64,000 bases of DNA from an uncultured Oscillospiraceae bacterium (GTDB taxonomy: Bacteria; Bacillota; Clostridia; Christensenellales; CAG-138): contig CAZIQO010000002.1 of assembly GCA_964541465.1 (NCBI GenBank), forward strand, positions 710-64,709, in the 5' to 3' direction. The notes under the pieces are model-generated. The model was not told where the DNA came from, made no database searches, and was given only the letters and a program-made list of their open reading frames with translations. Below, in pieces: positions 18,353 through 38,840 of the stretch (positions are counted from its first letter, which is position 1; each line of letters begins with the position of its first letter). The position numbers and the translations under genes were made by a program.

Positions 18353-19537
18353 TTACTCTTCGCTGTTGGTCTCCGCTGCGCGGAAAATCCGGATCACGTC
18401 CTCCTCGCCGAGCGGGCGGATGCAGCCGATCTTCCCGCCCCCGCAGGCAAGCTTTGCCATGGCGGCGTAGTCCGCATCGGAACGGACGCCGATCTCCTGC
18501 ATGGTCTGCGGCGCGCCGAGCTCGCGGTAGAACGCACGCAGCCGCCGGATGCCCTCTTTCGCGGTCTCCTCCGGGTGAACCCAGTCCGGCTCCGCACCCA
18601 TCACGCGCACGGCAAACTGCGCAAACCTCGGCACGTTGGAGCGGTAGACGTATTCGACCCAGGCGGGGATCAGCACGGAAAGCGTCGCGCCGTGCACAAT
18701 ATTGTAATACCCGCTCAGCTGCGCGCCCATGCAGTGGCTCGCCCAGTCCTGCGCGCGGCCGATGCCGACAAGGCCGTTGTGCGCCACGACGGAGGAAACC
18801 ATCAGTTCGGCGCGCGCGTCGTAATCGGCCGGGTTCTTCAGCACGCGGCGCGCGTTGTGCATGGCGGATACCATGATCGCCTCGCCCATGCGGTCGGTCA
18901 GATCATTTCCGACCGACGAGGAGAAGTACCGTTCCATCACGTGCGAGATCATGTCCACCACGCCGTATACGGTCTGCTTGCGCGGCAGCGTGAACGTCAG
19001 TTCGGGGTCCATGAGCGTAAAGGCCGGCCGGATGACGTCGCTCATGATGTCCCGCTTCTGCTTTGTGGCCATGTTTGTGATCACGGAGCCGTTGCTCCCC
19101 TCGCTGCCGGTCGCGGGCAGCGTCATGATCGTGCCGACCGGAAGCGCCTGTTCGACCGAGGCCTTACCGAGGTAGAGATCCCATACGTCGCCATCGTACG
19201 CCGTGCCGACCGCGACGGCCTTCGCCGTGTCGATCACGCTGCCGCCGCCGAGCGCGAGCACGAACCCCACCTTCTCTTTGCGGCAGATTTCAATTCCCTT
19301 GTACACCAGATCCAGCGTCGGGTTCGGCTGCACGCCGGGCAGCTCGAAGCACCGAAGTCCAGCGCCCTCGAGCGCGTTCATCACGCGGTCCCGCAGCCCC
19401 GAATCGTAGATGAACCGGTCGCCGTAGTGCGTGAGCAGCACACTGTCGCTGTAGCGCTTCACCTCTTCGCCCGCGAGCGCGATTGCCCCGCGGCGCAGAA
19501 TCATCCTTGTCGGCGATACGAACGAAAAATCATCCAT
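18353..19537 (-). CDS. iron-containing (group III) alcohol dehydrogenase
   Basis: 394 aa with GGGSVIDTAKAVA and a His-rich metal-site region (HVMERYF... HNGLVG... H). BdhA/YqhD-like. Confidence 0.9.
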   Translation of the reverse strand: MDDFSFVSPTRMILRRGAIALAGEEVKRYSDSVLLTHYGDRFIYDSGLRDRVMNALEGAGLRCFELPGVQPNPTLDLVYKGIEICRKEKVGFVLALGGGSVIDTAKAVAVGTAYDGDVWDLYLGKASVEQALPVGTIMTLPATGSEGSNGSVITNMATKQKRDIMSDVIRPAFTLMDPELTFTLPRKQTVYGVVDMISHVMERYFSSSVGNDLTDRMGEAIMVSAMHNARRVLKNPADYDARAELMVSSVVAHNGLVGIGRAQDWASHCMGAQLSGYYNIVHGATLSVLIPAWVEYVYRSNVPRFAQFAVRVMGAEPDWVHPEETAKEGIRRLRAFYRELGAPQTMQEIGVRSDADYAAMAKLACGGGKIGCIRPLGEEDVIRIFRAAETNSEE

Positions 19538-19650
19538 GCTCCGTCCTCTCCTTTTCCTCGACTTCTTTCCCCGGCATCCGGGGAGCCGTTTGTTTCATGC
19601 CTCTTTGCCACACGCGGACCGCCTTTCAGCGATCCGCGTTGCTTGATCCC

Positions 19651-20601
19651 TCAGGAGGCCTTCGCCGTTTCTTTCTTGGTTTTTACCTTCTTGCCCGTCT
19701 GCCTTGCCCGGCGCATCGTCGAACTCAGCGCAAGAGCGATGAGTGCGAACACATACGGGAACGTCTTCACAAGATACGGCGAGATGTTCGACGCGAGCAG
19801 TTCGAAGCGCACGCCGATGGCGTCCGCAACGCCCAGCAGCAGCGCGACGAGCCACGTCGCAATCGGGTCCGCGCCGCCGAACACAAACGCCGTAAACGCC
19901 GTATAACCGCGGCCGGCCACCATGTTTTCCGTAAACGACGTGACGGAAACCGTCGACATATAGGCGCCGCCCAGGCCGCACATGAAACCCGACCACAGGA
20001 TGGCCAGGAGCTTGATGCGATTGGTCTTGATGCCCGCGGCTTCCGCGGTCTCCGGCGACTCGCCGATCGCGCGGACCGCAAGGCCGAAGTGCGTGCGGTA
20101 CAGAACGACGGCCGTGATCAGCGTGATCAGCATGCACAGGTACACCATGTAGTTCTGCCCGCTGAACAGTTCCCCGAGCACGGGGATATCCTTCAGCACG
20201 GGAATGGTGATCGATTTCGCCTTTGTGATCACGTCGGGTTTGAGCGAACCGGACGTATCGAACATCACGCGCAGGAAATAGGACGTAAGCCCCACGCCGA
20301 GCAGGTTGATCGCGATGCTCGCCACGATCGCGTTCGCGTTGAGCTTGAGCACCGCCATCGCGTAGACCAGCGAAAGCAGCATGGAAAACACGACCGCCGT
20401 CACAAGACCCATGATCATGCTCCCGCCGAACCAGCAGACGCCGGCGGTCGCGCTGAACGCGCCGATGAGCATCAGTCCTTCAAGGCCGATATTGAACACA
20501 CCGCAGCGCTGGCACATCAGGCCGCCCATCGCGGCAAGCGCAATCGGCGTCGCGGTCCGGATCGCGGTTGCAAACAGGGACAGGTCAAAATAGTGTCCCA
20601 T
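19651..20601 (-). CDS. ABC transporter permease (BMP/nucleoside-type, NupQ/YufQ-like)
   Basis: 316 aa polytopic membrane protein. Start codon shares one base with the upstream permease stop (TGATG). Confidence 0.85.
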   Translation of the reverse strand: MGHYFDLSLFATAIRTATPIALAAMGGLMCQRCGVFNIGLEGLMLIGAFSATAGVCWFGGSMIMGLVTAVVFSMLLSLVYAMAVLKLNANAIVASIAINLLGVGLTSYFLRVMFDTSGSLKPDVITKAKSITIPVLKDIPVLGELFSGQNYMVYLCMLITLITAVVLYRTHFGLAVRAIGESPETAEAAGIKTNRIKLLAILWSGFMCGLGGAYMSTVSVTSFTENMVAGRGYTAFTAFVFGGADPIATWLVALLLGVADAIGVRFELLASNISPYLVKTFPYVFALIALALSSTMRRARQTGKKVKTKKETAKAS

Positions 20602-21740
20602 CAGCGGCTCACCTCCGTTCCGGCGTCCCCTTCTTCGCCCTGCGGCAGCGTTGCAGGTTCGGAAACCGCCTTGTCTTTTTTATACCGTTTCAGCCACTGT
20701 TTGATGTAGGGCGCCGCGAACGTCGCACTGATGGCAAGCACGATGATGGCCTGCACGATGTCCGCCGTAGCGGCCGGAATGTTTGTGATGCGCTGCATGT
20801 TCGTCATGCCGTTGTCGAGGCACGCGAAGAAGAACGCCGCAAAGATACAGCCGATCGGATTGTTGTTGGCCAGAATCGCCACGACGATGCCGGAGAAGCC
20901 GATCTGCGCGGAGTTGAAGAGATTCACAAACCGATGCTGGACGCCGAGGATCATCACGACGCCCGCGATGCCGGAGATGAATCCGCTGACCATCATGACC
21001 TTGAGGATCGCCGTCTTGGAGCGGATGCCGCCGTAGCGCGCGAATTCCGGATTCTCGCCGGTTACCTTGAGTTCGTACCCGAAGCGCATCCGGTTCATGA
21101 CGAAAGCAAGCAGGAACGCGAGCACGATGCCGATATACAGTCCGGTGTTCGCCTTGCCCAGAACGCTCGAAAGAAAGTAGCTCTCGGACACGTATTCGCT
21201 CGAATTGACGATATTCGGCGTCTTGAGCGGGCCGAGGATGACCGCCTCCGTCACAAGCTCCGCGATGAAGTTGAGCAGCAGCGTCGACACGACCTCGTCC
21301 GCGTTCCAGAGCACCTTCATCAGCGCGGGAATCAGCGCGAACAGCATCCCCGCGATCCCGCCGATGAGAAACAGAAACGGGATGCCCACGACGCGCGAAA
21401 GATTCGGCAGCCACAGCGCGACCACCGTGCAGGCGAGCGCGCCCATGTAATACTGACCGTCGATGCCGAGATTGAAAAAGCCCATTTTAAACGGCATGCA
21501 GACCGCGAGCGCCGTGATCAGAAGAAAGATCATGGCCTTGATCGTGCCGCCGAAGTCCTTCACCAGCCCTCTCCCGATTCCGTCGATCACGCTTCCCCAC
21601 GGATAGCCGGAAAGGCCGAGAAACACGGTCGCGAGGACCAGCGCGAGCACGATCAGAACAACTCTTCCGATGACGGAATGGAGCATGTTCTTGAGCTGCA
21701 TCGTCAAAGCCGCTTTTTTCTTTTCCGATAGTTTCATCAT
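20601..21740 (-). CDS. ABC transporter permease (NupP/YufP-like)
   Basis: 379 aa polytopic membrane protein located between the ATPase and the second permease. Confidence 0.85.
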   Translation of the reverse strand: MMKLSEKKKAALTMQLKNMLHSVIGRVVLIVLALVLATVFLGLSGYPWGSVIDGIGRGLVKDFGGTIKAMIFLLITALAVCMPFKMGFFNLGIDGQYYMGALACTVVALWLPNLSRVVGIPFLFLIGGIAGMLFALIPALMKVLWNADEVVSTLLLNFIAELVTEAVILGPLKTPNIVNSSEYVSESYFLSSVLGKANTGLYIGIVLAFLLAFVMNRMRFGYELKVTGENPEFARYGGIRSKTAILKVMMVSGFISGIAGVVMILGVQHRFVNLFNSAQIGFSGIVVAILANNNPIGCIFAAFFFACLDNGMTNMQRITNIPAATADIVQAIIVLAISATFAAPYIKQWLKRYKKDKAVSEPATLPQGEEGDAGTEVSR

Positions 21741-21744
21741 GGCT

Positions 21745-23274
21745 CTACGCCCTCATTTCTTCCGCGGTCATGCGCTTCGCACCCGACATGTAAAGGCCGA
21801 TCTCGCCTTCGCTGACGGACCCGGCGCGGAAGGACGCAACAATCTCCCCTTCGTACATCACCAAAATCCGGTCCGAAAGTTCGAATATCTCGCTCAGTTC
21901 CGCAGAGATCAGCAGAATTCCCGTTCCCTCGTCGCGAAGCTTGAGCAGCTGCGCATGCATGAATTCGATCGCGCCGATATCCACGCCGCGCGTCGGCTGC
22001 GCCGCGATCAGAAGATCCGGATCGGAGTCGATCTCCCTCGCGTAGATCACCTTCTGGATGTTGCCGCCGGACAGCGTTTTGAGCGCGTATTTCGCGCTGG
22101 GCACCTTGATGCCGAACTTCTCGACCAGATTCTCCGCCATCGTGTCCGTCCGCTTGCGATCGAGCACATGGAACCGCGCGTACGGCGCGCGGTAGTAGCA
22201 GTTCAGAATCAGGTTCTCCTCGATGGAGCAGTGCGCCGCGACGCCGACCCGCATGCGGTCCTCCGGGATATGGGAGATGCCGAGTTCCCTGCGCTGACGG
22301 ATGCTTTTTTTATTGATCGGGACGTTTTCAAAATAGAGCTTCCCGCGCAGCGCCGGACTCTGCCCCGCCACGACCTCCTCGATCTCCGTCTGCCCGTTGC
22401 CCTCCACGCCGGCGATGCCCACGATCTCTCCCTTATGCACGGAAAAGCTCACGTTTCGCACGGCCATGAAGTTACGCGCATTCTTGGCGTACAGGTTCTC
22501 CACGCGCAGGACCTCCTCGCCCGGCGCGTACGGCGCGCGCGGCAGATTGCTCTGCGTCACGTGTCCGACCATCAGGTTGGAAAGCTCCCTTTCGTTCGTC
22601 TCCGAAGCCAGCACGCGGCCGGTCACAACGCCTTTGCGCATGACGGTGATCCGGTTTGCGATGGCCAAAACTTCTTTTAATTTGTGCGTGATAAAGATGA
22701 TTGAGCAGCCGTTGCTCTGCAGATTATGAAGAACGCCGAAAAGAACCTTCGCCTCCGGCGGCGTAAGCACCGCCGTAGGTTCGTCAAAGATCAGGATCTT
22801 CGCATCCCGGTAGAGAAGCTTGACAATTTCGATCCTCTGGCGCTCGCCGACGGAAAGCTCGTAAACCTTCACATCCAGGTCCACGTGGAGCCCGTAGCGG
22901 TCCATGATGTCCTCCACCTTTTTGCGCGCCTTTTTCAGATCGATAAGCACCTTGTCGTGCGCGGAATTGCCGAGCGCTATGTTCTGAAGCGCGGTCAGCG
23001 ACGGCGCCAGCATGAAGTGCTGATGCACCATGCCGACCTGATGCCGGATCGCTTCGAGCGCCGTGCGCATCTCGACTTTCTCTCCAAACAGACGGATGCT
23101 TCCGGCATCCGGCTGAATCAGACCGTAGAGGATATTCATCAGTGTGGTTTTCCCCGCGCCGTTTTCCCCGATTAAACCATGGAGTTCCCCCTCCTCGATC
23201 ACCAGATCCACGTGGTCCACCGCGTGTACGTCGCCGAAGCTCTTGTCTATGCCCCTCATTTCCAGCACTTGCAT
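21745..23274 (-). CDS. ABC transporter ATP-binding protein with duplicated ABC domains
   Basis: 509 aa with Walker A GENGAGKTT, signature LSVGERQR and second signature LSGGNIQK. AGGAGGA RBS. Confidence 0.9.
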   Translation of the reverse strand: MQVLEMRGIDKSFGDVHAVDHVDLVIEEGELHGLIGENGAGKTTLMNILYGLIQPDAGSIRLFGEKVEMRTALEAIRHQVGMVHQHFMLAPSLTALQNIALGNSAHDKVLIDLKKARKKVEDIMDRYGLHVDLDVKVYELSVGERQRIEIVKLLYRDAKILIFDEPTAVLTPPEAKVLFGVLHNLQSNGCSIIFITHKLKEVLAIANRITVMRKGVVTGRVLASETNERELSNLMVGHVTQSNLPRAPYAPGEEVLRVENLYAKNARNFMAVRNVSFSVHKGEIVGIAGVEGNGQTEIEEVVAGQSPALRGKLYFENVPINKKSIRQRRELGISHIPEDRMRVGVAAHCSIEENLILNCYYRAPYARFHVLDRKRTDTMAENLVEKFGIKVPSAKYALKTLSGGNIQKVIYAREIDSDPDLLIAAQPTRGVDIGAIEFMHAQLLKLRDEGTGILLISAELSEIFELSDRILVMYEGEIVASFRAGSVSEGEIGLYMSGAKRMTAEEMRA

Positions 23275-23302
23275 GGGGGTCCTCCTAAATGATAAGATGT
23301 GC

Positions 23303-23339
23303 GGGAATGCGCGGACTCGCAGAAGTTCCGCGCATTCCC
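23303..23339 (-). other. intercistronic stem-loop between the binding-protein and ATPase genes
   Basis: 13-bp stem gggaatgcgcgga / tccgcgcattccc with no clear U-tract. This position is typical of SBP-gene mRNA stabiliser/attenuator hairpins. Confidence 0.6.
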
Positions 23340-23372
23340 TTTCCTGTATTTACCTGTTTTTCCGGTGTTTCA

Positions 23373-24515
23373 TCAGCGGGCCAGGATTGCCGCCCAATCC
23401 GGCGTATCGGTGATGAACTCGACCGTCAGCGCGCCGCTTTCAATCTGAGCGAGCGCTTCGTCAACCTTCGTCCAGGCCGCGTCGACAGCGTCCGCCTTGT
23501 CCGGGACCGCCGCCTTGAAGTTCGCGGTTGCTTCGTCGCTGTAGGCCATAATGCCGTCGTCATACCCTACGACCTGGCTGCCGCCCTGCCAATTGCCGGT
23601 TGCCCACTTTTCGACCGCGTTGTAGAGGTCGACGTCGAAGTAAACGACCCAGCACGCCGGGAGGACCGCCTCATAGCCTTCGCTGAGGTTGTAGGACGTG
23701 TCGCCGATGACCAGCACGTCGCCGGCTTCCTGAGCAGCCTCGTACACACCAACGCGCGCAGCGCCGATATCGGTGCCGATCACGTCGCAGCCGACGGCGA
23801 TCATGGCTTCCGCCTTGGTCTTTGCGGAATCGACGTCTTCATAGCTGTTGTTGTAGATGAACTCTACCTGAGCGTCGGGGTTGGCCCACTTTACGCCCTG
23901 CATGAAGCCGTTGGCTTCCGCGTTGGCCGAGGGCTCCTCAGCACCGAGGATGAAACCGACATGGCCGTCCGTAGACATGCTCGCCGCGAGGATGCCCGCG
24001 ATGAACAGGCCCTTCTGGGTCTGCCAGTTGGTCGTGTAGATGTTGTCGTAGCCTTCAATGTTCTGATACAGGCCGACGAACTTCACATCCGGATAATCCT
24101 TGGCGCACTGCATCACCGCTTCGGACATGAACGAGAAGGTGGTGATGATGAGCTGGCAACCTTCCTCGCAGAGCGCGGCGAGGTCGTCGTAGTAGTTGGC
24201 TTCGTCGAGGGACTCGAGCGTCGTGTAATCCAGATTATAGTCCGCGGATACTCTCTGGAGTCCTTCGAGCATCTGGTCGATGGAGCTGCCGTCGCCGAAG
24301 CGCTGGTTCGCTACGAGCGCAATCTTCGGCTTTGCGGTCTCCTCGGTCGTCTCTTCCGCAGGCGCCTCGGTCGTCTCTTCCACAGGCGCTTCGGTCGCTT
24401 CCGTAGCGGTGGTGGTCTCTTCGGATTCGGTCGTTGTCTTGGCGCAGCCGGCAAACATCACCGAAACAAGCGCCAGCGCTAGCAACAGGGCAAGGAATTT
24501 CTTTGCTTCTTTCAT
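23373..24515 (-). CDS. BMP-family (Med/PnrA-like) ABC substrate-binding lipoprotein
   Basis: Signal peptide plus lipobox MKEAKKFLALLLALALVSVMFAGC, a Thr/Glu-rich linker, then a BMP-type domain. GAAGGAGA RBS before ATG 24515. The 616-aa track ORF is an artefactual extension. Confidence 0.85.
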   Translation of the reverse strand: MKEAKKFLALLLALALVSVMFAGCAKTTTESEETTTATEATEAPVEETTEAPAEETTEETAKPKIALVANQRFGDGSSIDQMLEGLQRVSADYNLDYTTLESLDEANYYDDLAALCEEGCQLIITTFSFMSEAVMQCAKDYPDVKFVGLYQNIEGYDNIYTTNWQTQKGLFIAGILAASMSTDGHVGFILGAEEPSANAEANGFMQGVKWANPDAQVEFIYNNSYEDVDSAKTKAEAMIAVGCDVIGTDIGAARVGVYEAAQEAGDVLVIGDTSYNLSEGYEAVLPACWVVYFDVDLYNAVEKWATGNWQGGSQVVGYDDGIMAYSDEATANFKAAVPDKADAVDAAWTKVDEALAQIESGALTVEFITDTPDWAAILAR

Positions 24516-30880: not shown

Positions 30881-31048
30881 ACAGGAGTTTTACCCCTGCA
30901 CCCCACCCAAGGGACACGTCCCTTGGGAATTCCTGTACCCCGCAAACGCCCTGTTCCAGGGCGTTTGCGGAAATGGGTTCTCAGGGCCATTACGGCCCTG
31001 CGCGGTAGGTTGGAGGCGGAGCCTCCAGCGCCCCTCTTTATCGACAAG
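30881..31048. repeat. hairpin-rich intergenic repeat, family A, copy 2
   Basis: Aligns with 2708..2873. The central hairpin here is a perfect 14-bp stem (ccgcaaacgccctg-ttc-cagggcgtttgcgg), whereas copy 1 keeps only the outer 6 bp with one compensatory G:C to A:T change. Confidence 0.85.
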
Positions 31049-31052
31049 CTGC

Positions 31053-31080
31053 GCGCCGCCGGTCTTTCAGCCGGCGGCGC
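31053..31080. repeat. 28-nt GC hairpin, right copy
   Basis: gcgccgccgg-tctttcag-ccggcggcgc, immediately 3' of repeat A copy 2. Confidence 0.8.
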
Positions 31081-31147
31081 TTTGCAAATCCGAATCCTTT
31101 GCGCCGCGCACAGAAGCATTGCGGCGGGTGTCCGCCTTTTTTTACGT

Positions 31148-32029
31148 TCAGCGCACGGCTTCCGACCGGGCGCCGGTGTTCGCCGCCCGGTCCAGCAAGG
31201 CGGCAAAACGGCTCCCGGTCGCTTCGACGTTTTGCCTCCAGCCGTCGTCCCTGCACCACAGCTCCGCGGTGAACATCCGTACACCCAACTCGTATGCGGT
31301 GCGTATCGCCGCCGAAAAATCCACATGCCCTTCCCCCGCGACCAGATCGCGGTAGATTCCCGGCGCGCTTTCTTTGAGGTGCACGGCGGCGATATGCCCG
31401 CGCCCGCAGAGCAGGTCCGCGCGCACGGCGGCCGCGTCGCCATGCGCGGCGTTCGTCAGGTTCCCCACATCGGGATATACCTGAAGAAACGGCGAATCCA
31501 TCGCCTCAACATACCGCATGGCCTTCTGCACCGTATCCAGAAACGGCGTCTCCATCGTCTCGAACGCCAGTATGACGCCGGCGCGCGCTGCAATCTCCAC
31601 GCAGCGGCGCAGATTTTCGGAAAAGAGCGCGCGCGTGCGCTCCGTGGACGGCTCATAGTACGTATCGTAGCCCGCGAGCTGGATGATGCGTATGCCGAGG
31701 TCCGCCGCCAGGTGAACCGCCTTTTGCAGGATGTCCATCCCCCGCGCGCGCACCGTATCGTCTTCCGAGCCGATCGGGTATTTCCGGTGTCCGCTCAGGC
31801 ACATCGTCGAGATCGGCACGCCGCTAGCAAACATTTCCTCCGCCAGCGCGCGGCGCTCCGCGGCCGTCCACTCGAGCCGGGCAAGCCGTTCCTCCGTTTC
31901 GTCCACGCTGAGCTCAAGCCAGTTGAACCCGCATTCGGCGGCGCATACCAGCTTCCGCGGAAGCGTCATTCCGGCGGGCAGCGCCTTTTCATAAAGCCCG
32001 AGCCTGTACTCCTTTTCGTACCCGTTCAC
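31148..32029 (-). CDS. sugar-phosphate 3-epimerase of the UlaE/SgbU (L-xylulose-5-P / L-ribulose-5-P 3-epimerase) xylose-isomerase-like TIM family
   Basis: 293 aa. LGLYEKALP start, ...ELSVDE..., IIQLAGYD and FETMETPF patterns match the UlaE/SgbU family. GTG start directly abuts the kinase stop. Confidence 0.8.
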   Translation of the reverse strand: MNGYEKEYRLGLYEKALPAGMTLPRKLVCAAECGFNWLELSVDETEERLARLEWTAAERRALAEEMFASGVPISTMCLSGHRKYPIGSEDDTVRARGMDILQKAVHLAADLGIRIIQLAGYDTYYEPSTERTRALFSENLRRCVEIAARAGVILAFETMETPFLDTVQKAMRYVEAMDSPFLQVYPDVGNLTNAAHGDAAAVRADLLCGRGHIAAVHLKESAPGIYRDLVAGEGHVDFSAAIRTAYELGVRMFTAELWCRDDGWRQNVEATGSRFAALLDRAANTGARSEAVR

Positions 32030-33550
32030 TTAAAACGCCTTTCCTTCGTCCCATACGCAGCCGAGCGCGCCGACGACTTTTTGATAGAGCGCGTATTTTT
32101 GGTCGTACGCCGCGGCGTTTTCCTCGTTCGACCGCACGGCGCGCGAGAGCTTCGTCATGTGCGCGGCCGCGTCCGCAAGATCCGCATATTCGCCCGCCGC
32201 GACCGCCGCCGCCATCGCGCAGCCGAGCGTTCCCGTTTCCCGCGCCTGCACCGTTTCGACGGGCAGCCGCATCACGTCGGCGAACATCTGCGTCCAGACC
32301 GCCGAACGCGCCGCGCCGCCCGCGAGGCGGATGCCCTCCGGCGGCGTTTCGCGCGTTTTCAGCAGGCGCTCCAGATGCTGCCGGTGCGAAAACGCGACTC
32401 CTTCGTAGACGCTTCGCGTCAGATGCGCGCGCGTATGGTAACCGCTCAGTCCGATGAATCCGCCCGTCGCGTTCGGATGCTCGTTGCTCCCGAACAGAAA
32501 CGGCAGGAAGACCGGGCAGGACTCCGACGCTGGCAAGCCTTCGACCCACGCGTTTTCCCGTTCGTAAACGCTTGTTCCGCTTTGTCCGCACGCTTCGGCC
32601 AGTTCCGGCAGGAGCGTGTGCACATACCACTCGTTATTGCCCGCCGAGGTCGGGCTGCATTCCTCCACAAGGTAGCGGCCCGGGATGCAGAAGAGCGAGT
32701 TCATCAGCGCGCTTCCGTCCAGAACGGGGGTTTCCCGGACGTATTCGTTGATGCTCCAGGTGCCGGCGATCATGCAGACGTGCGTGTCGTCGGTACAGCC
32801 GACCGCGAGCGCGCACGCGTCGATGTCGAACATGCCGCCCGCCACCGGCGTTCCTTCCAGCAGCCCCGTCTGCGCGGCCGCCCCGCGGCTCACCTGCCCG
32901 CAGATCTCGGTCGTACCGCACAGCGGCGGGAGCGCGCCCCGCATCCGTTCCAGACCGAAGAGCCGCAAGAGTTCCTCGTCGTATTCGGCGGTATGGAGGT
33001 TCAGAAGGTTCGCGCCGGAATAGTCCGTCCGTTCCGCGCGCGCGGCGCCGGTCAGCCGGAAGCGGATATAGTCCTTGCACTCGAACACCCATTGCGTCCG
33101 CTCGAGCGCGTCCGGCTCGTTGTCGGCCAGCCACCGCAGCAGCGCCACGGGCTGGCAGGCGAGCACATGCTGGCAGGAGCGCCGGAACGCCTCGCGCTCC
33201 GTGCCGTCCGCCTTCCATCTTTCCGCATACGCCCAGGCGCGGCCGTCCGTGGAGCAGATGCCGTTCCGCACGGGCTTTCCGGATTTACCCCAGAGGTAGA
33301 GCCCCTTGCCGTGCCCGCAGACCGCGGCTGCCGCGATGTCCGCCGACCTGACGCCGGACGCCTCCAGCACGCTGCGGATCACGCGGCAGTTCGATTGCCA
33401 CATCTCCTCCATGTCGCGCTCTGCAAATCCGGGGCGCGGCGCGATGATAGCCGTCTCCGCCGACCGGGTGCACGCCTCGCGTCCGCCGGAATCGTAGAGC
33501 GACGCCTTCGTGCTGGTTCCTCCGTTGTCGAGTCCCAGATAATACCGCAT
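32030..33550 (-). CDS. FGGY-family carbohydrate kinase, LyxK (L-xylulose/3-keto-L-gulonate kinase)-like
   Basis: 506 aa. LGLDNGGTSTKA, PGFAERDMEEMWQ, LLRWL..NEP and ALPPLCGTTEICG blocks parallel my recollection of E. coli LyxK. Confidence 0.8.
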   Translation of the reverse strand: MRYYLGLDNGGTSTKASLYDSGGREACTRSAETAIIAPRPGFAERDMEEMWQSNCRVIRSVLEASGVRSADIAAAAVCGHGKGLYLWGKSGKPVRNGICSTDGRAWAYAERWKADGTEREAFRRSCQHVLACQPVALLRWLADNEPDALERTQWVFECKDYIRFRLTGAARAERTDYSGANLLNLHTAEYDEELLRLFGLERMRGALPPLCGTTEICGQVSRGAAAQTGLLEGTPVAGGMFDIDACALAVGCTDDTHVCMIAGTWSINEYVRETPVLDGSALMNSLFCIPGRYLVEECSPTSAGNNEWYVHTLLPELAEACGQSGTSVYERENAWVEGLPASESCPVFLPFLFGSNEHPNATGGFIGLSGYHTRAHLTRSVYEGVAFSHRQHLERLLKTRETPPEGIRLAGGAARSAVWTQMFADVMRLPVETVQARETGTLGCAMAAAVAAGEYADLADAAAHMTKLSRAVRSNEENAAAYDQKYALYQKVVGALGCVWDEGKAF

Positions 33551-33570
33551 AGGTCCTCCTCGCTTTGCCG

Positions 33571-34515
33571 TTACAATCCGCGCAGCAGCTCGAAGAGATG
33601 CGCCTTATACGCCGCCGCGTCCACCGTCGAGCAGATCTCCACCTTCGTGCCGGTCTCCGGGTGCATATTGGACTTGTCGATCCCGAAGTATCCGTAGCTG
33701 GTTTCGCCTTTCGTTTCGATGGTGCAGTTGGCGCGGTACACGTCCTTCTGCACCTCCGGCCAGAGCGCGGCGATCATGATGATGGAGTCGATGATGCCGA
33801 CCGCGTCCCTGCCCCACTTTTTGCGGTCGTACGCCCGCACGCTCTGCGTACAGCGCACCGCAAACTGCGAAAGCGGCGTGCCGGCGCTCTCGATATAGTC
33901 GAAATCCGCGCTCGAAAGCGGCGTTTCGCCGCGGCAGACGTCCCAGGTGACCCACGTCATGTTCATGCCGGATTTCAGCACGACGTCCGCCGCCTCCGCG
34001 TCCACATAGATATTGAACTCGCCCGCAGGCGTCGCGTTTCCCTGATCGAACCCCGTGCCGCCCATGATATACGCCTTCTTCACGTTTTCGGCGATGCGCG
34101 GCTCCTTGAGGTACGCCATGGCAAGGTTCGTCAGCGGACCCAGCGTGACGATTTCGATTTCGCCGGGGTTCGCCATCACAAGATCGATGATGGCGTCCAT
34201 CGCGTGCTTGCCGCCGGGCTTCGTTTCCGGCCACGGCAGGTTCATATTGCTCAGGCCGTCCCTGCCGTGCACCTCGCCCGCGCCATACGGGCGTTCGTGC
34301 AGGAGCGCGCGCGCCATGCCGCGGTAGACGGGCGGCCGGTATGTTCCGGCCCGCTCCACGGCGATGAGCGCGTTCTTCACGCAGTAATCGAGCTTCACGT
34401 TGCCCATCACGACCGTAATCGCTTCCACCTCCACCCGGTCCGTCGCGCGCAGCGCGCACAGCAGCGCCCATACGTCGTCGTTGCCCGTATCCGTATCGAT
34501 GAGAAATCTGCGCAT
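33571..34515 (-). CDS. nucleoside hydrolase (IUNH family)
   Basis: N-terminal fingerprint IDTDTGNDDVWAL. 314 aa, with typical length and fold signature. Confidence 0.88.
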   Translation of the reverse strand: MRRFLIDTDTGNDDVWALLCALRATDRVEVEAITVVMGNVKLDYCVKNALIAVERAGTYRPPVYRGMARALLHERPYGAGEVHGRDGLSNMNLPWPETKPGGKHAMDAIIDLVMANPGEIEIVTLGPLTNLAMAYLKEPRIAENVKKAYIMGGTGFDQGNATPAGEFNIYVDAEAADVVLKSGMNMTWVTWDVCRGETPLSSADFDYIESAGTPLSQFAVRCTQSVRAYDRKKWGRDAVGIIDSIIMIAALWPEVQKDVYRANCTIETKGETSYGYFGIDKSNMHPETGTKVEICSTVDAAAYKAHLFELLRGL

Positions 34516-34530
34516 ATGCTTCCTTTCTGT

Positions 34531-35790
34531 TTACCGCTGCGGCATGACGCGCCGCTCGTAATCCCTGACCGCCCCGAGCCAGTCCAGCCCCACCGGAATG
34601 TTCTGTTTCAGGCACGCGTAGTCCCAAACCGCTTCGTACGGCAGAAACTTGTTCTCCTCGAGCCGGACGAGCCGCGCGGTCAGATCGCCCGCCCGCTCCG
34701 CCTTGGCGATTTCGCCGTAAGGCTCGAGGCAGGCCTTGAGCAGCGCCCGGCGCGTGTTGCGCATGGCGATCCCCCAGCAGGCGACGCGGTTCATCGAGGC
34801 GTCGAAATAATCCTGCGCCACGAACACGCGCTCGTCGTATCCGTTGACGATGATCTCGCGGCACACGTTCTGCAGCGCGTCGTCCCAGAGCACGACGTGG
34901 TCGGAATCCCACCGTACGCCGCGGCTCGTGTGCAGCAGCACATGATCGAGGTACTGGAGCACGGCGCTGAGCTTGTCGCCGATATCCTCCGTCGGGTGAA
35001 AATGCCCCATGTCGATGCAGTAGGTCTTTCTGCGCGTGATCGCGTAGCCGAGCGAAAACTCGTGGCTCGCGACCGTGTAGCTCTCGATGCCGAAACCGAA
35101 GAGCTTGCTTTCGAGCGCGTCGATCTCGAGCGTCTCCGGCATTTGTTCCGCAAAGATCGCGTCGAGCGACTCCGCCATGCGGTTTCGGTACCGCGCGCGC
35201 TCCGCCGGAACGTCCTTGAACCCGTCCGGCATCCAGAAGTTCACCACGCACGGAACCCCCAGCAGTTCGCCGAACGCGCGCCCGATCTCGCGGCAGTGCT
35301 TGCCGTGCTCGATCCAGAACGCGCGCACGCCCGAATCCTCGCTTGCGAGCGTGAAATTGCCGTCCATCCTGGCATGCGAAAAGAACGTGGGGTTAAAGTC
35401 GAGCCCAAGAGAACGCGCCTTCGCCCAGTCCGCCCAGTCCCGGAATTCCTCGATCGTGTATGCGTCGCGGTCGATCGTTTTTCCATGCTTTTCCGCGTAG
35501 GACGCATGCAGGTTCAGCTTCGTTCTGCCCGGAACCAGGCCGAGCGCGAACGCGATGTCCGCGCGAAGCTCGTCCGGCGTGCGCGGGCAGCCCGGATAGC
35601 TGCCGGTCACGGCGATGCCGCCCGTGAGTCCGCCGCCGTTTTCAAACCCGTGAAAATCGTCGCCCTGCCAGCAGTGCATGGAGATCGGTATCCGCTCCGC
35701 GCGCTCGATCGCCGCCTTGACGTCCACGCCCAGCCCGCCGTAGATCTCCTCGGCGCGTCGAAACCCCTGCAGTATCTCAGATTCCGTCAT
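34531..35790 (-). CDS. rhaA: L-rhamnose-isomerase-type aldose-ketose isomerase
   Basis: 419 aa, collinear with E. coli RhaA as I recall it: PISMHCWQGDD..GFEN, LNLHA.Y, LGLDFNPT.FSH, FHPTE and RWDSDHVV blocks. Confidence 0.88.
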   Translation of the reverse strand: MTESEILQGFRRAEEIYGGLGVDVKAAIERAERIPISMHCWQGDDFHGFENGGGLTGGIAVTGSYPGCPRTPDELRADIAFALGLVPGRTKLNLHASYAEKHGKTIDRDAYTIEEFRDWADWAKARSLGLDFNPTFFSHARMDGNFTLASEDSGVRAFWIEHGKHCREIGRAFGELLGVPCVVNFWMPDGFKDVPAERARYRNRMAESLDAIFAEQMPETLEIDALESKLFGFGIESYTVASHEFSLGYAITRRKTYCIDMGHFHPTEDIGDKLSAVLQYLDHVLLHTSRGVRWDSDHVVLWDDALQNVCREIIVNGYDERVFVAQDYFDASMNRVACWGIAMRNTRRALLKACLEPYGEIAKAERAGDLTARLVRLEENKFLPYEAVWDYACLKQNIPVGLDWLGAVRDYERRVMPQR

Positions 35791-35878
35791 ATTCGTCCCG
35801 CTTTCCTTTTTTTCTGCCGCTTTGTGTTGCCGATGAAATAGAAGCTCCGGATCGTTTTTGTTTGCCTGTTACAGTTCG

Positions 35879-35907
35879 ATTCTATTCGGAATTTTTCTGT
35901 GCGTCAA
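35879..35907 (-). promoter_or_regulatory. sigma-A-type promoter of the rhaA-like operon
   Basis: On the minus strand: TTGACG (35902..35907), 17-nt spacer, TAGAAT (35879..35884). Confidence 0.55.
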
Positions 35908-35918
35908 CATCCGCATGC

Positions 35919-35936
35919 AAGAATCGTAAAATTCTT
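35919..35936. promoter_or_regulatory. inverted repeat AAGAAT-cgtaaa-ATTCTT between divergent promoters (candidate LacI-type operator)
   Basis: 6-bp arms. Position lies between the rhaA-operon and lacI-type promoters. Confidence 0.3.
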
Positions 35937-35989
35937 TTACTTTTTTTGAGCGATATTTCGATTTAATTTCAATTCTATCTCCCAACGGC

Positions 35990-36018
35990 TTGCACCTGAC
36001 GCGGCATTGCGGTATGAT
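35990..36018 (+). promoter_or_regulatory. sigma-A-type promoter of the LacI-family regulator
   Basis: TTGCAC (35990..35995), 17-nt spacer, TATGAT (36013..36018). Confidence 0.5.
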
Positions 36019-36077
36019 GTAACCATATTTTCCCCATGAATAACAGAGCGATTTCAGTTCGGAACTGCGGAGAAGGC

Positions 36078-37112
36078 ATGACGGCAAAAACACTCAAGGA
36101 AATTGCGGCGGAAACCGGCGTATCGGCGTCCATGGTTTCGCTGGTGCTGCACGACCGCGTCGGCGTCGGGAAGGAAAACCGCGGGCGCATCGCGCAGGCG
36201 CTGCGCGCAAACGGATACCGGATCCAGAAGGGACCGCGAAGCGGCGAAACCGGCAGTCTGTGCTTCCTGAAATTCAGCCTGCACGGCATGCTGGTCAACG
36301 GCAATCCGGGCTTTGTCAACGCCATCATCGACGCGGTGGAGAAGGAATCCAGCGCGCGCGGGTATTCCCTCGTGATGACCAACATGGACGAGCGGACCAT
36401 GCCCGCGGTGCTGGCCGGACTCGCCGAGCATCCGCCATCCGGCGTGATCCTGCTCGGCACGGAACTGGACGCCCGCCATCTTCCTTTGATCGGCGCCATC
36501 TCCGCGCCGTTCGTAATCGTGGACAGCCCGATGGAGTTCGAGCGCTGCGCGTGCGTGACGATGAACAACCAGGACGCGATCTGCGAGGCCGTCGGCTACC
36601 TTGCGCGGCTGGGGCATCCGGCGATCGGCTTCCTGGCAAACGCCGTTCCGGGCGGCAACTGCTTAAGCCGGCGCAACGCGTTTGAGCGCGCCGTGCGGCT
36701 GCTCGGCCGACCGTTCGATCCCGGTCTGATCTACAGCGTTTCGCCGACGATGGAGGGCGCGTACCAGTCCGTCCGCGCGCTGCTGGAGCAGGGAACGACC
36801 TTTCCGTCCGCGCTCGTGGCCAACAACGACAGTATCGCCCTCGGCGCGGTCAAGGCCTTCCGCGAAGCCGGGCTTCGCGTTCCGGAGGACATCGCTATCA
36901 TCGGCTTCGACGATATCGGTTTTTCCGCGATCGCGGACCCGCCGCTGACGACCATGCGCGTTTCCTGCGCGGCGATCGGTCAGCTCACGGTGCGCCTTCT
37001 CTGCGACAGAATCGCCGACCCGTCGCAACCTTTGATCAAGCTGCAGGTCTGCCCCGACCTGATCGTGCGGCAAAGTACCTGCGCCTACGCGCCAGAGCGC
37101 GCGAATCCCTGA
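36078..37112 (+). CDS. LacI-family transcriptional regulator
   Basis: HTH LKEIAAETGVSASMVSLVL followed by a periplasmic-binding-protein-like sugar sensor domain. ATG 36078 (GGAGAAGG upstream) is preferred over 36036. Confidence 0.88.
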   Translation: MTAKTLKEIAAETGVSASMVSLVLHDRVGVGKENRGRIAQALRANGYRIQKGPRSGETGSLCFLKFSLHGMLVNGNPGFVNAIIDAVEKESSARGYSLVMTNMDERTMPAVLAGLAEHPPSGVILLGTELDARHLPLIGAISAPFVIVDSPMEFERCACVTMNNQDAICEAVGYLARLGHPAIGFLANAVPGGNCLSRRNAFERAVRLLGRPFDPGLIYSVSPTMEGAYQSVRALLEQGTTFPSALVANNDSIALGAVKAFREAGLRVPEDIAIIGFDDIGFSAIADPPLTTMRVSCAAIGQLTVRLLCDRIADPSQPLIKLQVCPDLIVRQSTCAYAPERANP

Positions 37113-37155: not shown

Positions 37156-37767
37156 ATGCAGACCGTCACCCCGGAAAAAATCCTAGCAGTATCGTCCGTC
37201 TCGTTCCGCACCTACGGCGGAATCGTGGACGGCTATCCCTGCGCCGAACTCATCAAACGGCTGGCGCAGACGGATGCGCCGGCCGATTGCGTGAACTATA
37301 TCGCTTCGTTGGACAGTCTGGAATCCTGCGCGGAGTTCGCCGCGCTGCAGAACGGCTTTTTCGGCGGCCTTGCCTGTCAGGCGGGCGTGTGCAGCGGATA
37401 CACCACGCGCGTCGACGCGCTGGAATACCACCGCTGCAGCGAGCTGCTGCTCTTCGGCACCGACGCCGTGCTGCTGCTCGGCCACCGCTGGGAGATCGAA
37501 GACGGGCAATATGATTTCGGGAGGCTGGAGGCGTTTTTTGTTCCGCGCGGAACGCTGCTGGAGCTCTTTGCCACAACGCTGCACTATTCGCCCTGCGCCG
37601 CCGCGCCGAACGAGCCGTTTCGCGCGGCCGTCGTGCTGCCGCGCGGCACCAACGGCGCGTATCCATTGCCCCGCGGGCAGAACGCGGAAGCGCGTCTGCT
37701 CGAAGCCGCGAACAAATGGGTCGTTCACGCCGCGCGTCCGGCGGAGATCCTGCCGCTCCTCGTTTGA
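37156..37767 (+). CDS. hypothetical protein (tentatively DUF4867 / ureidoglycolate-lyase-like fold)
   Basis: 203-aa ORF with normal composition, 43 nt downstream of the LacI gene. Family assignment is from memory only. Confidence 0.55.
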   Translation: MQTVTPEKILAVSSVSFRTYGGIVDGYPCAELIKRLAQTDAPADCVNYIASLDSLESCAEFAALQNGFFGGLACQAGVCSGYTTRVDALEYHRCSELLLFGTDAVLLLGHRWEIEDGQYDFGRLEAFFVPRGTLLELFATTLHYSPCAAAPNEPFRAAVVLPRGTNGAYPLPRGQNAEARLLEAANKWVVHAARPAEILPLLV

Positions 37768-37773
37768 ATATCC

Positions 37774-38571
37774 TCAGTCGATGAGTCCAAAGTGACGCAG
37801 CGCAAACGCAATGCCGTCTTCGTCGATCCGCTTCGTGACGAAGTAGGCTTTTTCATGGAGTTCCTTCACCGCGTTGCCCATCAGAACGCTCGTTCCGGCG
37901 CAGCCAAGCATCTCGAGGTCGTTCGGTCCGTCCCCGAACGCAAACGTCCGCGCCATATCGCCGCCCAGGCGCGAAACCACCGTCCGGATGCCCGTCGCCT
38001 TCGTATACCCCAGCGGCACGCATTCGTAAAACGCGTACCGGTCGATCGCATGAAAGTACCTGCCGATGGCGGCGAGAAACGCGTCCATGTCCGCCGCCGG
38101 ACTTTTCCACGCCAGGAATTTTTCAAACCGGAACGACGGGCTGTCGACGTCCGTCGAAACGTGCACGCCCATGCGTCCCAGCCGGTGCCGCTCCCGTTCG
38201 TTTTCGGCGCTGAGCGGTCTGGTCAGATCGTAGCAGACGCCTTCCTTCGATTCGTACGTCGTTTCGACGCGGCACGTCCTGCTTAAGTCGCGTATCGTCC
38301 GGCAGAGCGCCGCCGGCACGACGACGTCCTGCACGATCGTATCCTGCAGGCGGATATACAGCCCGCCGGAACAGACGGTCCCGTCGAATCCGATGGCAAG
38401 CACCTGCGGCTCGATATGGGTGTACGGCCTTCCCGTGTTGACAAAGGCAAGGTGGCCGCGCGCGCGCGCCCGGCGGATCGCGTCGGCGGCGCTCGTCGGG
38501 ACCGTGTGCGTGTCCTCGGTGACCAGGGTGCCGTCGACATCAAAAAACAGCATGCATCTATTCTTGTTCAT
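37774..38571 (-). CDS. HAD-superfamily Cof-type (IIB) phosphatase
   Basis: Motif I FFDVDGTL, plus later GDGPND (motif IV). Start set at ATG 38571. The track ORF up to 38784 is an extension. Confidence 0.85.
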   Translation of the reverse strand: MNKNRCMLFFDVDGTLVTEDTHTVPTSAADAIRRARARGHLAFVNTGRPYTHIEPQVLAIGFDGTVCSGGLYIRLQDTIVQDVVVPAALCRTIRDLSRTCRVETTYESKEGVCYDLTRPLSAENERERHRLGRMGVHVSTDVDSPSFRFEKFLAWKSPAADMDAFLAAIGRYFHAIDRYAFYECVPLGYTKATGIRTVVSRLGGDMARTFAFGDGPNDLEMLGCAGTSVLMGNAVKELHEKAYFVTKRIDEDGIAFALRHFGLID

Positions 38572-38577
38572 CGCTTC

Positions 38578-38606
38578 AGTATAGCGAATTTTCCTCTGCC
38601 AAGCAA
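38578..38606 (-). promoter_or_regulatory. promoter placing the predicted TSS on the HAD start codon (leaderless candidate)
   Basis: On the minus strand: TTGCTT (38601..38606), 17-nt spacer, TATACT (38578..38583), then 6 nt (gaagcg) to the ATG. No SD sequence. Confidence 0.4.
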
Positions 38607-38840
38607 TCGAAATGCAGCCGAACGCATCTCTTTTTCCGGGGATGAAGTCTTCGCACGCCGCTGTCCTCCCCGCCGCGGCTGATGGACAGATCGGACCCGG
38701 CATGGTATCATGCAGCCGAACGGAATGTGCCGGGCCGCCGTTTCCGAATAAAGCGGCGCCGAAAAAAATCATACGGCGCGGCAACCTTTCCGCCTCCTCT
38801 GAAGTGTTCCTGTTGCAGTAAACAAACGGAGGAAATTACT

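Follow-up and report, generated by a model that had tools for sequence, protein, structure and literature searches.

What does a nucleoside hydrolase do among the genes of an L-xylulose-5-phosphate route? The question is raised by the DNA analysed here, a 64-kb stretch (the window; contig C2:710-64709) of an 84%-complete, 2.7-Mb assembly of 62% G+C from an uncultured Oscillospiraceae bacterium, in which one operon joins a hydrolase of the IUNH family to a RhaA-type isomerase, a LyxK-like kinase and an SgbU-like 3-epimerase. IUNH enzymes release D-ribose while LyxK, SgbU and AraD make up the L-xylulose-5-phosphate route, so that the stereochemistries of the two halves conflict. From the comparison of genomes described below I take the operon to be one member of a conserved catabolic module of gut Clostridia. 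The reading that I favour, although I would put it somewhat short of an even chance, is that ordinary ribonucleosides yield D-ribose, which is converted to D-ribulose, D-ribulose-5-phosphate and D-xylulose-5-phosphate, bypassing ribokinase.

The operon lies on the minus strand. Its first gene (34531-35790) encodes the RhaA-type aldose-ketose isomerase (PF06134, 537 bits) and is followed by those of the nucleoside hydrolase (33571-34515; PF01156, 256 bits, with the motif DTDTGNDD), the LyxK-clade FGGY pentulokinase (32030-33550; FGGY_N and FGGY_C domains) and the UlaE/SgbU-type pentulose-5-phosphate 3-epimerase (31148-32029; NF009689, 333 bits against a cut-off of 200). A LacI-family regulator (36036-37112, plus strand; LacI helix-turn-helix and Peripla_BP_3 domains) is divergent. 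Coordinates and domain content of the four minus-strand open reading frames and of the regulator agree with the initial annotation of this DNA, whose enzyme assignments are also borne out by family models, identities and trees. The hydrolase gene is separated by 15 nucleotides (nt) from rhaA and by 20 nt from the kinase gene, the start of the epimerase gene directly abuts the kinase stop codon (0 nt, as previously noted), and each of these three junctions has a ribosome-binding site. A consensus scan recovers, at the position annotated before, a sigma-70-like promoter, TTGACG-17-TAGAAT (35879-35907, minus strand; 10/12 matches). The four-gene operon is compact, is served by one promoter and appears to be coupled in translation.

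If the hydrolase belongs with its neighbours, the arrangement should recur. Scanning species genomes with an alignment of the hydrolase recovered 49 loci, where a single-sequence scan gave none, and known proteins were mapped onto these loci by tblastn. The hydrolase is conserved inside the operons of relatives, a point that the initial annotation had listed as a check: rhaA lies directly upstream of it in at least 15 genomes, from Anaerotruncus, Oscillibacter, other Oscillospiraceae and one member of the Victivallaceae. Encoded with the pair are the kinase and epimerase, LacI and an ATP-binding cassette (ABC) importer of Bmp/PnrA or PotD-like type, and often AraD and a DUF4867 protein. Two arrangements can be distinguished. 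In the first, seen in Anaerotruncus massiliensis, DUF4867 and lacI are divergent from rhaA, the hydrolase, a Bmp ABC importer, kinase, epimerase and araD; Bmp-type clusters occur also in a metagenome-assembled genome labelled Bacteroides, in Onthomonas and in two Oscillospiraceae genomes. In the second, found in A. colihominis, Oscillibacter and others, a PotD-like ABC importer is followed by rhaA, the hydrolase, an Fe-alcohol dehydrogenase, DUF4867 and an ADP-ribosylglycohydrolase fusion, with lacI, epimerase, kinase and sometimes araD divergent. In five genomes (L030, L031, L047, G043, G044) araD is part of the cluster or its immediate neighbour, and the 3-epimerase is intact in eight of the nine clusters that could be assessed. 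The linked RhaA proteins fall in two lineages, one a deep clade and the other the sister group of canonical RhaA from rhamnose contexts in Christensenellales, whereas the hydrolases form one subfamily. RhaA has therefore been recruited beside the hydrolase more than once, which argues for selection on the pairing. The linkage supports a single pathway of import, hydrolysis, isomerisation, C5 phosphorylation and C3 epimerisation.

Several clusters vary in their details. In A. colihominis DSM 17241 (L037/L089, ~649.3-649.9 kb) the epimerase is cut to ~70-95 alignable residues and AraD is far from the cluster, while RhaA, the hydrolase and the kinase are kept; in strain JM4-15 (L039, 1453-2265) the epimerase is full length. 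The fusion protein of the PotD-type clusters, 696 residues long in L037 (11823-13913), has an N-terminal ADP-ribosylglycohydrolase and a 390-residue C-terminal part that matches no NCBIfam model; homologs adjoin the hydrolase in L036, L038, L039, L044-L047, L050 and L051. Next to lacI of the Onthomonas cluster is a gene of the Ldh_2 family (L033:10777-12216), the family of the 2,3-diketo-L-gulonate reductase YiaK.

Could the hydrolase and the sugar cassette nevertheless serve separate pathways? The cassette would then take a free rare pentose imported elsewhere, and the hydrolase would be only co-regulated or inserted, its ribose passing to ribokinase. The initial annotation had named a hydrolase-free but otherwise identical operon in a relative as the mark of an accidental insertion, and formally one such operon exists: the closest known, in the same-genus genome G445 (RhaA 73% and kinase 65% identical), runs rhaA-kinase-epimerase-araD with no hydrolase and stands beside an RbsB-like sugar ABC transporter. 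Genome G019 has a similar free-sugar cluster. The hydrolase itself is present in 0 of 39 other genomes of the genus and, of 400 genomes sampled across the order, in just one, and ribokinase-like genes are found in every genome checked. The operon of G445 also counts against the D-ribose reading. However, the hydrolase gene is set between isomerase and kinase with the short gaps given above, the order rhaA then hydrolase is kept in the at least 15 genomes and in both RhaA lineages, and DUF4867 tracks the combination of RhaA with the hydrolase. Moreover, the only importer in the A. massiliensis operon is of the nucleoside type (Bmp), so that the hydrolysed nucleoside is the only visible source of sugar there. 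Two unconnected pathways are accordingly an unlikely explanation. Divergent from the rhaA operon of G445 (L091:203-7659) lie, together with the RbsB-like transporter, an AraC-type regulator, a second FGGY kinase and a 492-residue AraA/SftI-like isomerase, a label that holds at family level only.

An operon headed by a RhaA homolog might also be an ordinary L-rhamnose operon with a passenger gene. The isomerase, 49% identical to E. coli RhaA, does score just above the NCBIfam cut-off for L-rhamnose isomerase (NF002203, 578.9 against 572), but falls below that of TIGR01748 (536 against 585). In the RhaA tree its sister is the G445 protein (support 100/100). The isomerase belongs to a LyxK-linked clade distinguished from canonical RhaA by V45L/F, Q60A and S270A/G, and the canonical RhaA proteins found in rhamnose contexts within this order branch outside it. 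The kinase is of the LyxK type and matches RhaB with 58 bits only. By tblastn, no match to RhaB, RhaD/RhaEW, RhaM, XylA or FucI was found in the 84%-complete genome, and the operon is therefore not read as a rhamnose operon; I consider that explanation barely credible.

Which sugar, then, does the hydrolase release? Its calcium motif (DTDTGNDD, residues 7-14) and the C-terminal D243 are invariant in 31 members of the subfamily and align to those of solved enzymes. N39, N160, E166 and N168 are likewise invariant, and H83 is conserved; Asn39, Asn160, Glu166 and Asn168 are the contacts of the ribose hydroxyls (Crithidia numbering). By alignment, none of the contacts to calcium and to the 2', 3' and 5' hydroxyls of the ribose has been lost. 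Group I hydrolases, which prefer inosine-uridine or cytidine-uridine substrates, have, immediately before the C-terminal Asp, a catalytic His that protonates the leaving group. Here this residue is replaced by Ile242, invariant in the subfamily; the equivalent residue is His in the plant enzyme 4kpo and Pro in the Sulfolobus solfataricus purine nucleosidase 3t8i, which is the best solved relative of the hydrolase.

The relatives of the hydrolase point the same way. The subfamily is tight (100/100), an ABC importer adjoins every member, its tree splits by transporter type, and metagenomes hold hundreds of homologs with 50-87% identity. Members without RhaA adjoin a ribokinase-like PfkB, DeoC or pyrimidine nucleoside phosphorylase (Pynp) and are interleaved in the tree with the RhaA-linked ones, and the sister group is found in a LacI-RbsK-IUNH-Bmp context in Brevibacillus. 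These contexts therefore indicate D-ribose as the product. Three hydrolase-bearing genomes have neither RhaA nor the kinase. A 5'-deoxynucleoside substrate, with disposal through a dihydroxyacetone phosphate shunt of isomerase, 1-kinase and aldolase, was rejected: the kinase is of the distal, LyxK type, what the clusters encode from the class II aldolase family is clear AraD (~350 bits), and the contacts of the hydrolase with the 5'-hydroxyl are conserved.

D-ribose and L-lyxose differ solely at C4, which lies outside the recognition of RhaA. Since they read only C2 and C3, Firmicutes enzymes of the RhaA family isomerise D-ribose as well as L-lyxose, and many RhaA are active on D-ribose (PMC11485043). 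A C4-tolerant module that handles both sugars could therefore be envisaged.

The kinase is 39% identical to E. coli LyxK (346 bits), while LsrK reaches 150 bits and XylB 119 bits, the E. coli comparison proteins being taken from the annotated K-12 record. The kinases of all the clusters fall in one clade with LyxK (98% support), a protein that a survey of the FGGY family placed only in some Gammaproteobacteria (PMC3245297). Within the genus, orthologs with 59-65% identity are encoded in rhaA or araA operons. Five genomes have araA-araD-epimerase-kinase operons with orthologs 59-61% identical and no canonical AraB, from which it follows that the LyxK-clade kinase is probably the L-ribulokinase there. 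In these operons (L093-L097, from G442, G007, G020, G002 and G019) the SgbU-like 3-epimerase has no obvious role. The occurrence of kinase, 3-epimerase and 4-epimerase in araA operons shows the trio behaving as a mobile cassette. The kinase of the window is probably not strictly specific for L-xylulose, and E. coli AraB, another kinase of the L-series, phosphorylates D-ribulose in vivo (bioRxiv 10.1101/2025.02.06.636802).

The epimerase shares 45-48% identity with its E. coli counterparts UlaE and SgbU. Glu155, Asp185, His211 and Glu251 are the metal and catalytic residues of this family; aligned with 3CQH, the protein keeps all four and the N-terminal loops as well. The initial annotation had regarded the pathway as incomplete, with neither a 4-epimerase nor a transporter. 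It is true that no AraD is encoded within the 64-kb window. The search of the genome that it recommended does recover one, on contig C6 (43847-44533; 360 bits against a cut-off of 257), 61-67% identical to SgbE/AraD; it is not beside AraA, which is at the edge of contig C28. With this gene, and with AraD in or beside the clusters of the five relatives, the pathway need no longer be called incomplete.

These enzymes permit a quite different substrate, namely an unrecognised natural nucleoside or other N-glycoside whose sugar has the configuration of L-lyxose, the 4-epimer of ribose. RhaA would convert L-lyxose to L-xylulose, LyxK would form L-xylulose-5-phosphate, SgbU L-ribulose-5-phosphate and AraD D-xylulose-5-phosphate. 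No other reading needs all four conserved enzymes, and it copies the L-lyxose route of E. coli. It fits the grouping of the kinase with LyxK, the UlaE catalytic residues of the epimerase, the substitutions shared by LyxK-linked RhaA clades and absent from canonical RhaA, and AraD in or beside five clusters and in the genome of the window. It also explains why the module coexists with ribokinase-like genes, in genomes where ribokinase and Rpe are already present. Against it, the contacts made with a D-ribofuranoside at its 5'-hydroxyl are still present in the hydrolase, the closest relatives of the hydrolase, scattered in the tree among the RhaA-linked proteins, come from ordinary nucleoside loci (ribokinase, DeoC, Pynp), and three genomes have the hydrolase without RhaA and kinase. 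To my knowledge no natural L-lyxosyl N-glycoside exists, and none was found in the literature searched. I therefore hold an L-lyxose-configured substrate to be improbable, and the broader statement that gut Oscillospiraceae, the bacterium of the window among them, catabolise a natural 4'-epimeric nucleoside or other L-lyxose N-glycoside is more doubtful still.

D-ribose has difficulties of its own. Ribokinase-like genes are not only general but stand beside the cluster itself in L046 and L050, and with one in the bacterium's own locus on contig C26 a second ribose route looks redundant. D-ribulose-5-phosphate is already a central metabolite, with Rpe present, yet the 3-epimerase is intact in eight of nine clusters; AraD has no role in the use of D-ribose, yet it accompanies five clusters. 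I know of no documented activity of a LyxK-clade kinase on D-ribulose or of an SgbU-type epimerase on D-ribulose-5-phosphate. Lack of Rpe was ruled out as the reason for an extra epimerase, the genome having two Rpe genes, and so was phosphoketolase as a reason to aim for xylulose-5-phosphate, the gene being absent from the genome. On the other side, the flexibility of the kinase suggested by its orthologs in araA operons and the truncation of the epimerase in DSM 17241 may be counted for D-ribose. Taken with the active site of the hydrolase, the contexts of its relatives, the nucleoside importers, the chemistry of RhaA and the AraB precedent, they make D-ribose the most likely sugar. The earlier proposal that the freed pentose is consumed by isomerase, kinase and epimerase rather than by ribokinase is thus strengthened by the conserved linkage and the nucleoside-type importers, while the mismatch between D-ribose and L-xylulose-5-phosphate stereochemistry remains its weak point.

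The gene divergent from the operon beyond lacI may supply a further activity. It encodes a metal-binding cupin of the DUF4867 family (37156-37767, plus strand; PF16161, 189 bits), was absent from the initial annotation, and is predicted to be co-transcribed with lacI. The protein matches PDB 9GYY and keeps the metal residues E-x-H-x3-E and H. DUF4867 is encoded in the A. massiliensis cluster and in seven of eight PotD-type clusters with RhaA, and in none of the seven PotD-type loci without RhaA. For the SftX/SqvB proteins of sulfoglycolysis, which belong to the same family, share these metal residues and are likewise encoded beside an aldose isomerase and a ketose-consuming enzyme, a role on the ketose ring or anomer has been proposed (PMC11968277); the sugar pathway differs from that of the window.

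The pathway from D-ribose can now be set out. The genes, their operon, their families and their conserved linkage are as described; the substrate of every step is what I infer. A nucleoside-type ABC transporter would import a ribonucleoside, probably of the purine type or another N-riboside, which the IUNH hydrolase would split into base and pentose. The RhaA-type isomerase, reading only the configuration of C2 and C3, would turn the pentose into a 2-ketopentose, the DUF4867 cupin probably assisting the opening or anomerisation of the ketofuranose. The LyxK-clade kinase would phosphorylate C5 and the SgbU-like enzyme would invert C3, delivering the carbon to the pentose phosphate pathway as xylulose-5-phosphate. 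LacI would repress the operon until an effector derived from nucleoside or ribose is present. Such a ribokinase-independent route would have been built from the mobile cassette of kinase, 3-epimerase and 4-epimerase.

As to import, the initial annotation was mistaken in seeing no transporter in the window. A Bmp/PnrA-type nucleoside ABC transporter (~19672-24332, minus strand, identified by tblastn) is encoded 7 kb from the operon, flanked by Pynp and a YqhD-like Fe-alcohol dehydrogenase. By tblastn its ATPase is 42%, its permeases 34-35% and its binding protein 26% identical to those of the A. massiliensis cluster. The system (19672-24332) is likely to supply the substrate of the operon, a link that I infer, since it sits in a separate operon. 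The dehydrogenase gene (18374-19555, minus strand) is the last of that Pynp/Bmp operon, and its product is 39% identical to the Fe-alcohol dehydrogenase encoded after the hydrolase in PotD-type clusters. On contig C26 of the same genome (21423-29035; L082) are Bmp-type ABC genes, a ribokinase-like PfkB gene and, in tandem, two IUNH genes that score 312 and 309 bits. The IUNH proteins encoded there are 35% identical to the hydrolase of the operon. As this is a classical nucleoside locus, the operon of the window is a second, different hydrolase system, with no PfkB gene of its own, the ribokinase-like gene being on C26 instead.

The nearest curated models of the LacI regulator are PurR, RbsR, CytR and UriR, each scoring under its cut-off, and orthologs 39-52% identical are encoded in related clusters. 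Between the divergent promoters is a weak palindrome, AGAATCGTAAAATTCT (35920-35935, assigned to no strand), with arms of 5 bp, and similar GAAT-N6/8-ATTC words occur in the intergenic regions of L033 and L030. It is tentatively a LacI operator, with low confidence; no copy was found upstream of araD. No riboswitch was found in the window or in seven related loci, nor any Rfam element in the operon leader. Two G+C-rich hairpins lie 3' of the epimerase stop codon (31040-31136). Neither has a T-run on the minus strand, and the first hairpin looks like a terminator that would serve the plus strand alone. Convergent with the DUF4867 gene is a gene for a Cof-type HAD phosphatase (37774-38784, minus strand), which could act on nucleotides or sugar phosphates and is not kept in related clusters.

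How does the module compare with known systems? The L-lyxose/L-xylulose route of E. coli (RhaA with LyxK, SgbU and SgbE of the cryptic yiaK-S operon, or UlaE and UlaF) relies on the four enzyme families of the module too, in a corresponding order of reactions. In the window, by contrast, isomerase, kinase and epimerase share one operon with a nucleoside hydrolase and have a DUF4867 cupin attached, and neither the decarboxylase SgbH/UlaD nor YiaK was detected in the genome by tblastn; the importers of the relatives are of nucleoside or PotD-like type rather than for sugars or diketogulonate. Loci that couple a hydrolase to ribokinase (E. coli rih with rbsK, Corynebacterium uriR-uriH, Bacteroides rus) also have an IUNH enzyme, often together with LacI and a nucleoside or ribose importer, whereas here isomerase, FGGY pentulokinase and 3-epimerase take the place of ribokinase. 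Some rus (ribose utilisation) loci carry ADP-ribosylglycohydrolases (bioRxiv 10.1101/574913), as do the PotD-type clusters. A precedent for the proposed kinase step is provided by enterohaemorrhagic E. coli (Aau with AraB) and Citrobacter rodentium (Rbl), in which a pentulokinase of the L-series phosphorylates D-ribulose for the pentose phosphate pathway (bioRxiv 10.1101/2025.02.06.636802). Those systems import free D-ribulose, however, while here the ketose would arise inside the cell from a hydrolysed nucleoside. A full-text literature search returned no description of this gene combination. What is new is the coupling of L-lyxose-type enzymes to a nucleoside hydrolase and nucleoside importers.

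Nucleosides rank among the major nutrients of the gut, and in textbooks their sugar is consumed by way of ribokinase or phosphorolysis. If the favoured pathway is correct, the module would be a third route, one that passes this sugar to an aldose isomerase, then to an FGGY pentulokinase and to epimerases of sugar phosphates, and would give the LyxK/SgbU-type genes of Clostridia and the DUF4867 family physiological roles that can be tested, directly so in the cultured Anaerotruncus strains that possess it. Should the sugar prove to be something other than ribose, the module would point instead to a natural nucleoside not yet recognised; one based on L-lyxose would represent a novel class of gut nucleosides.

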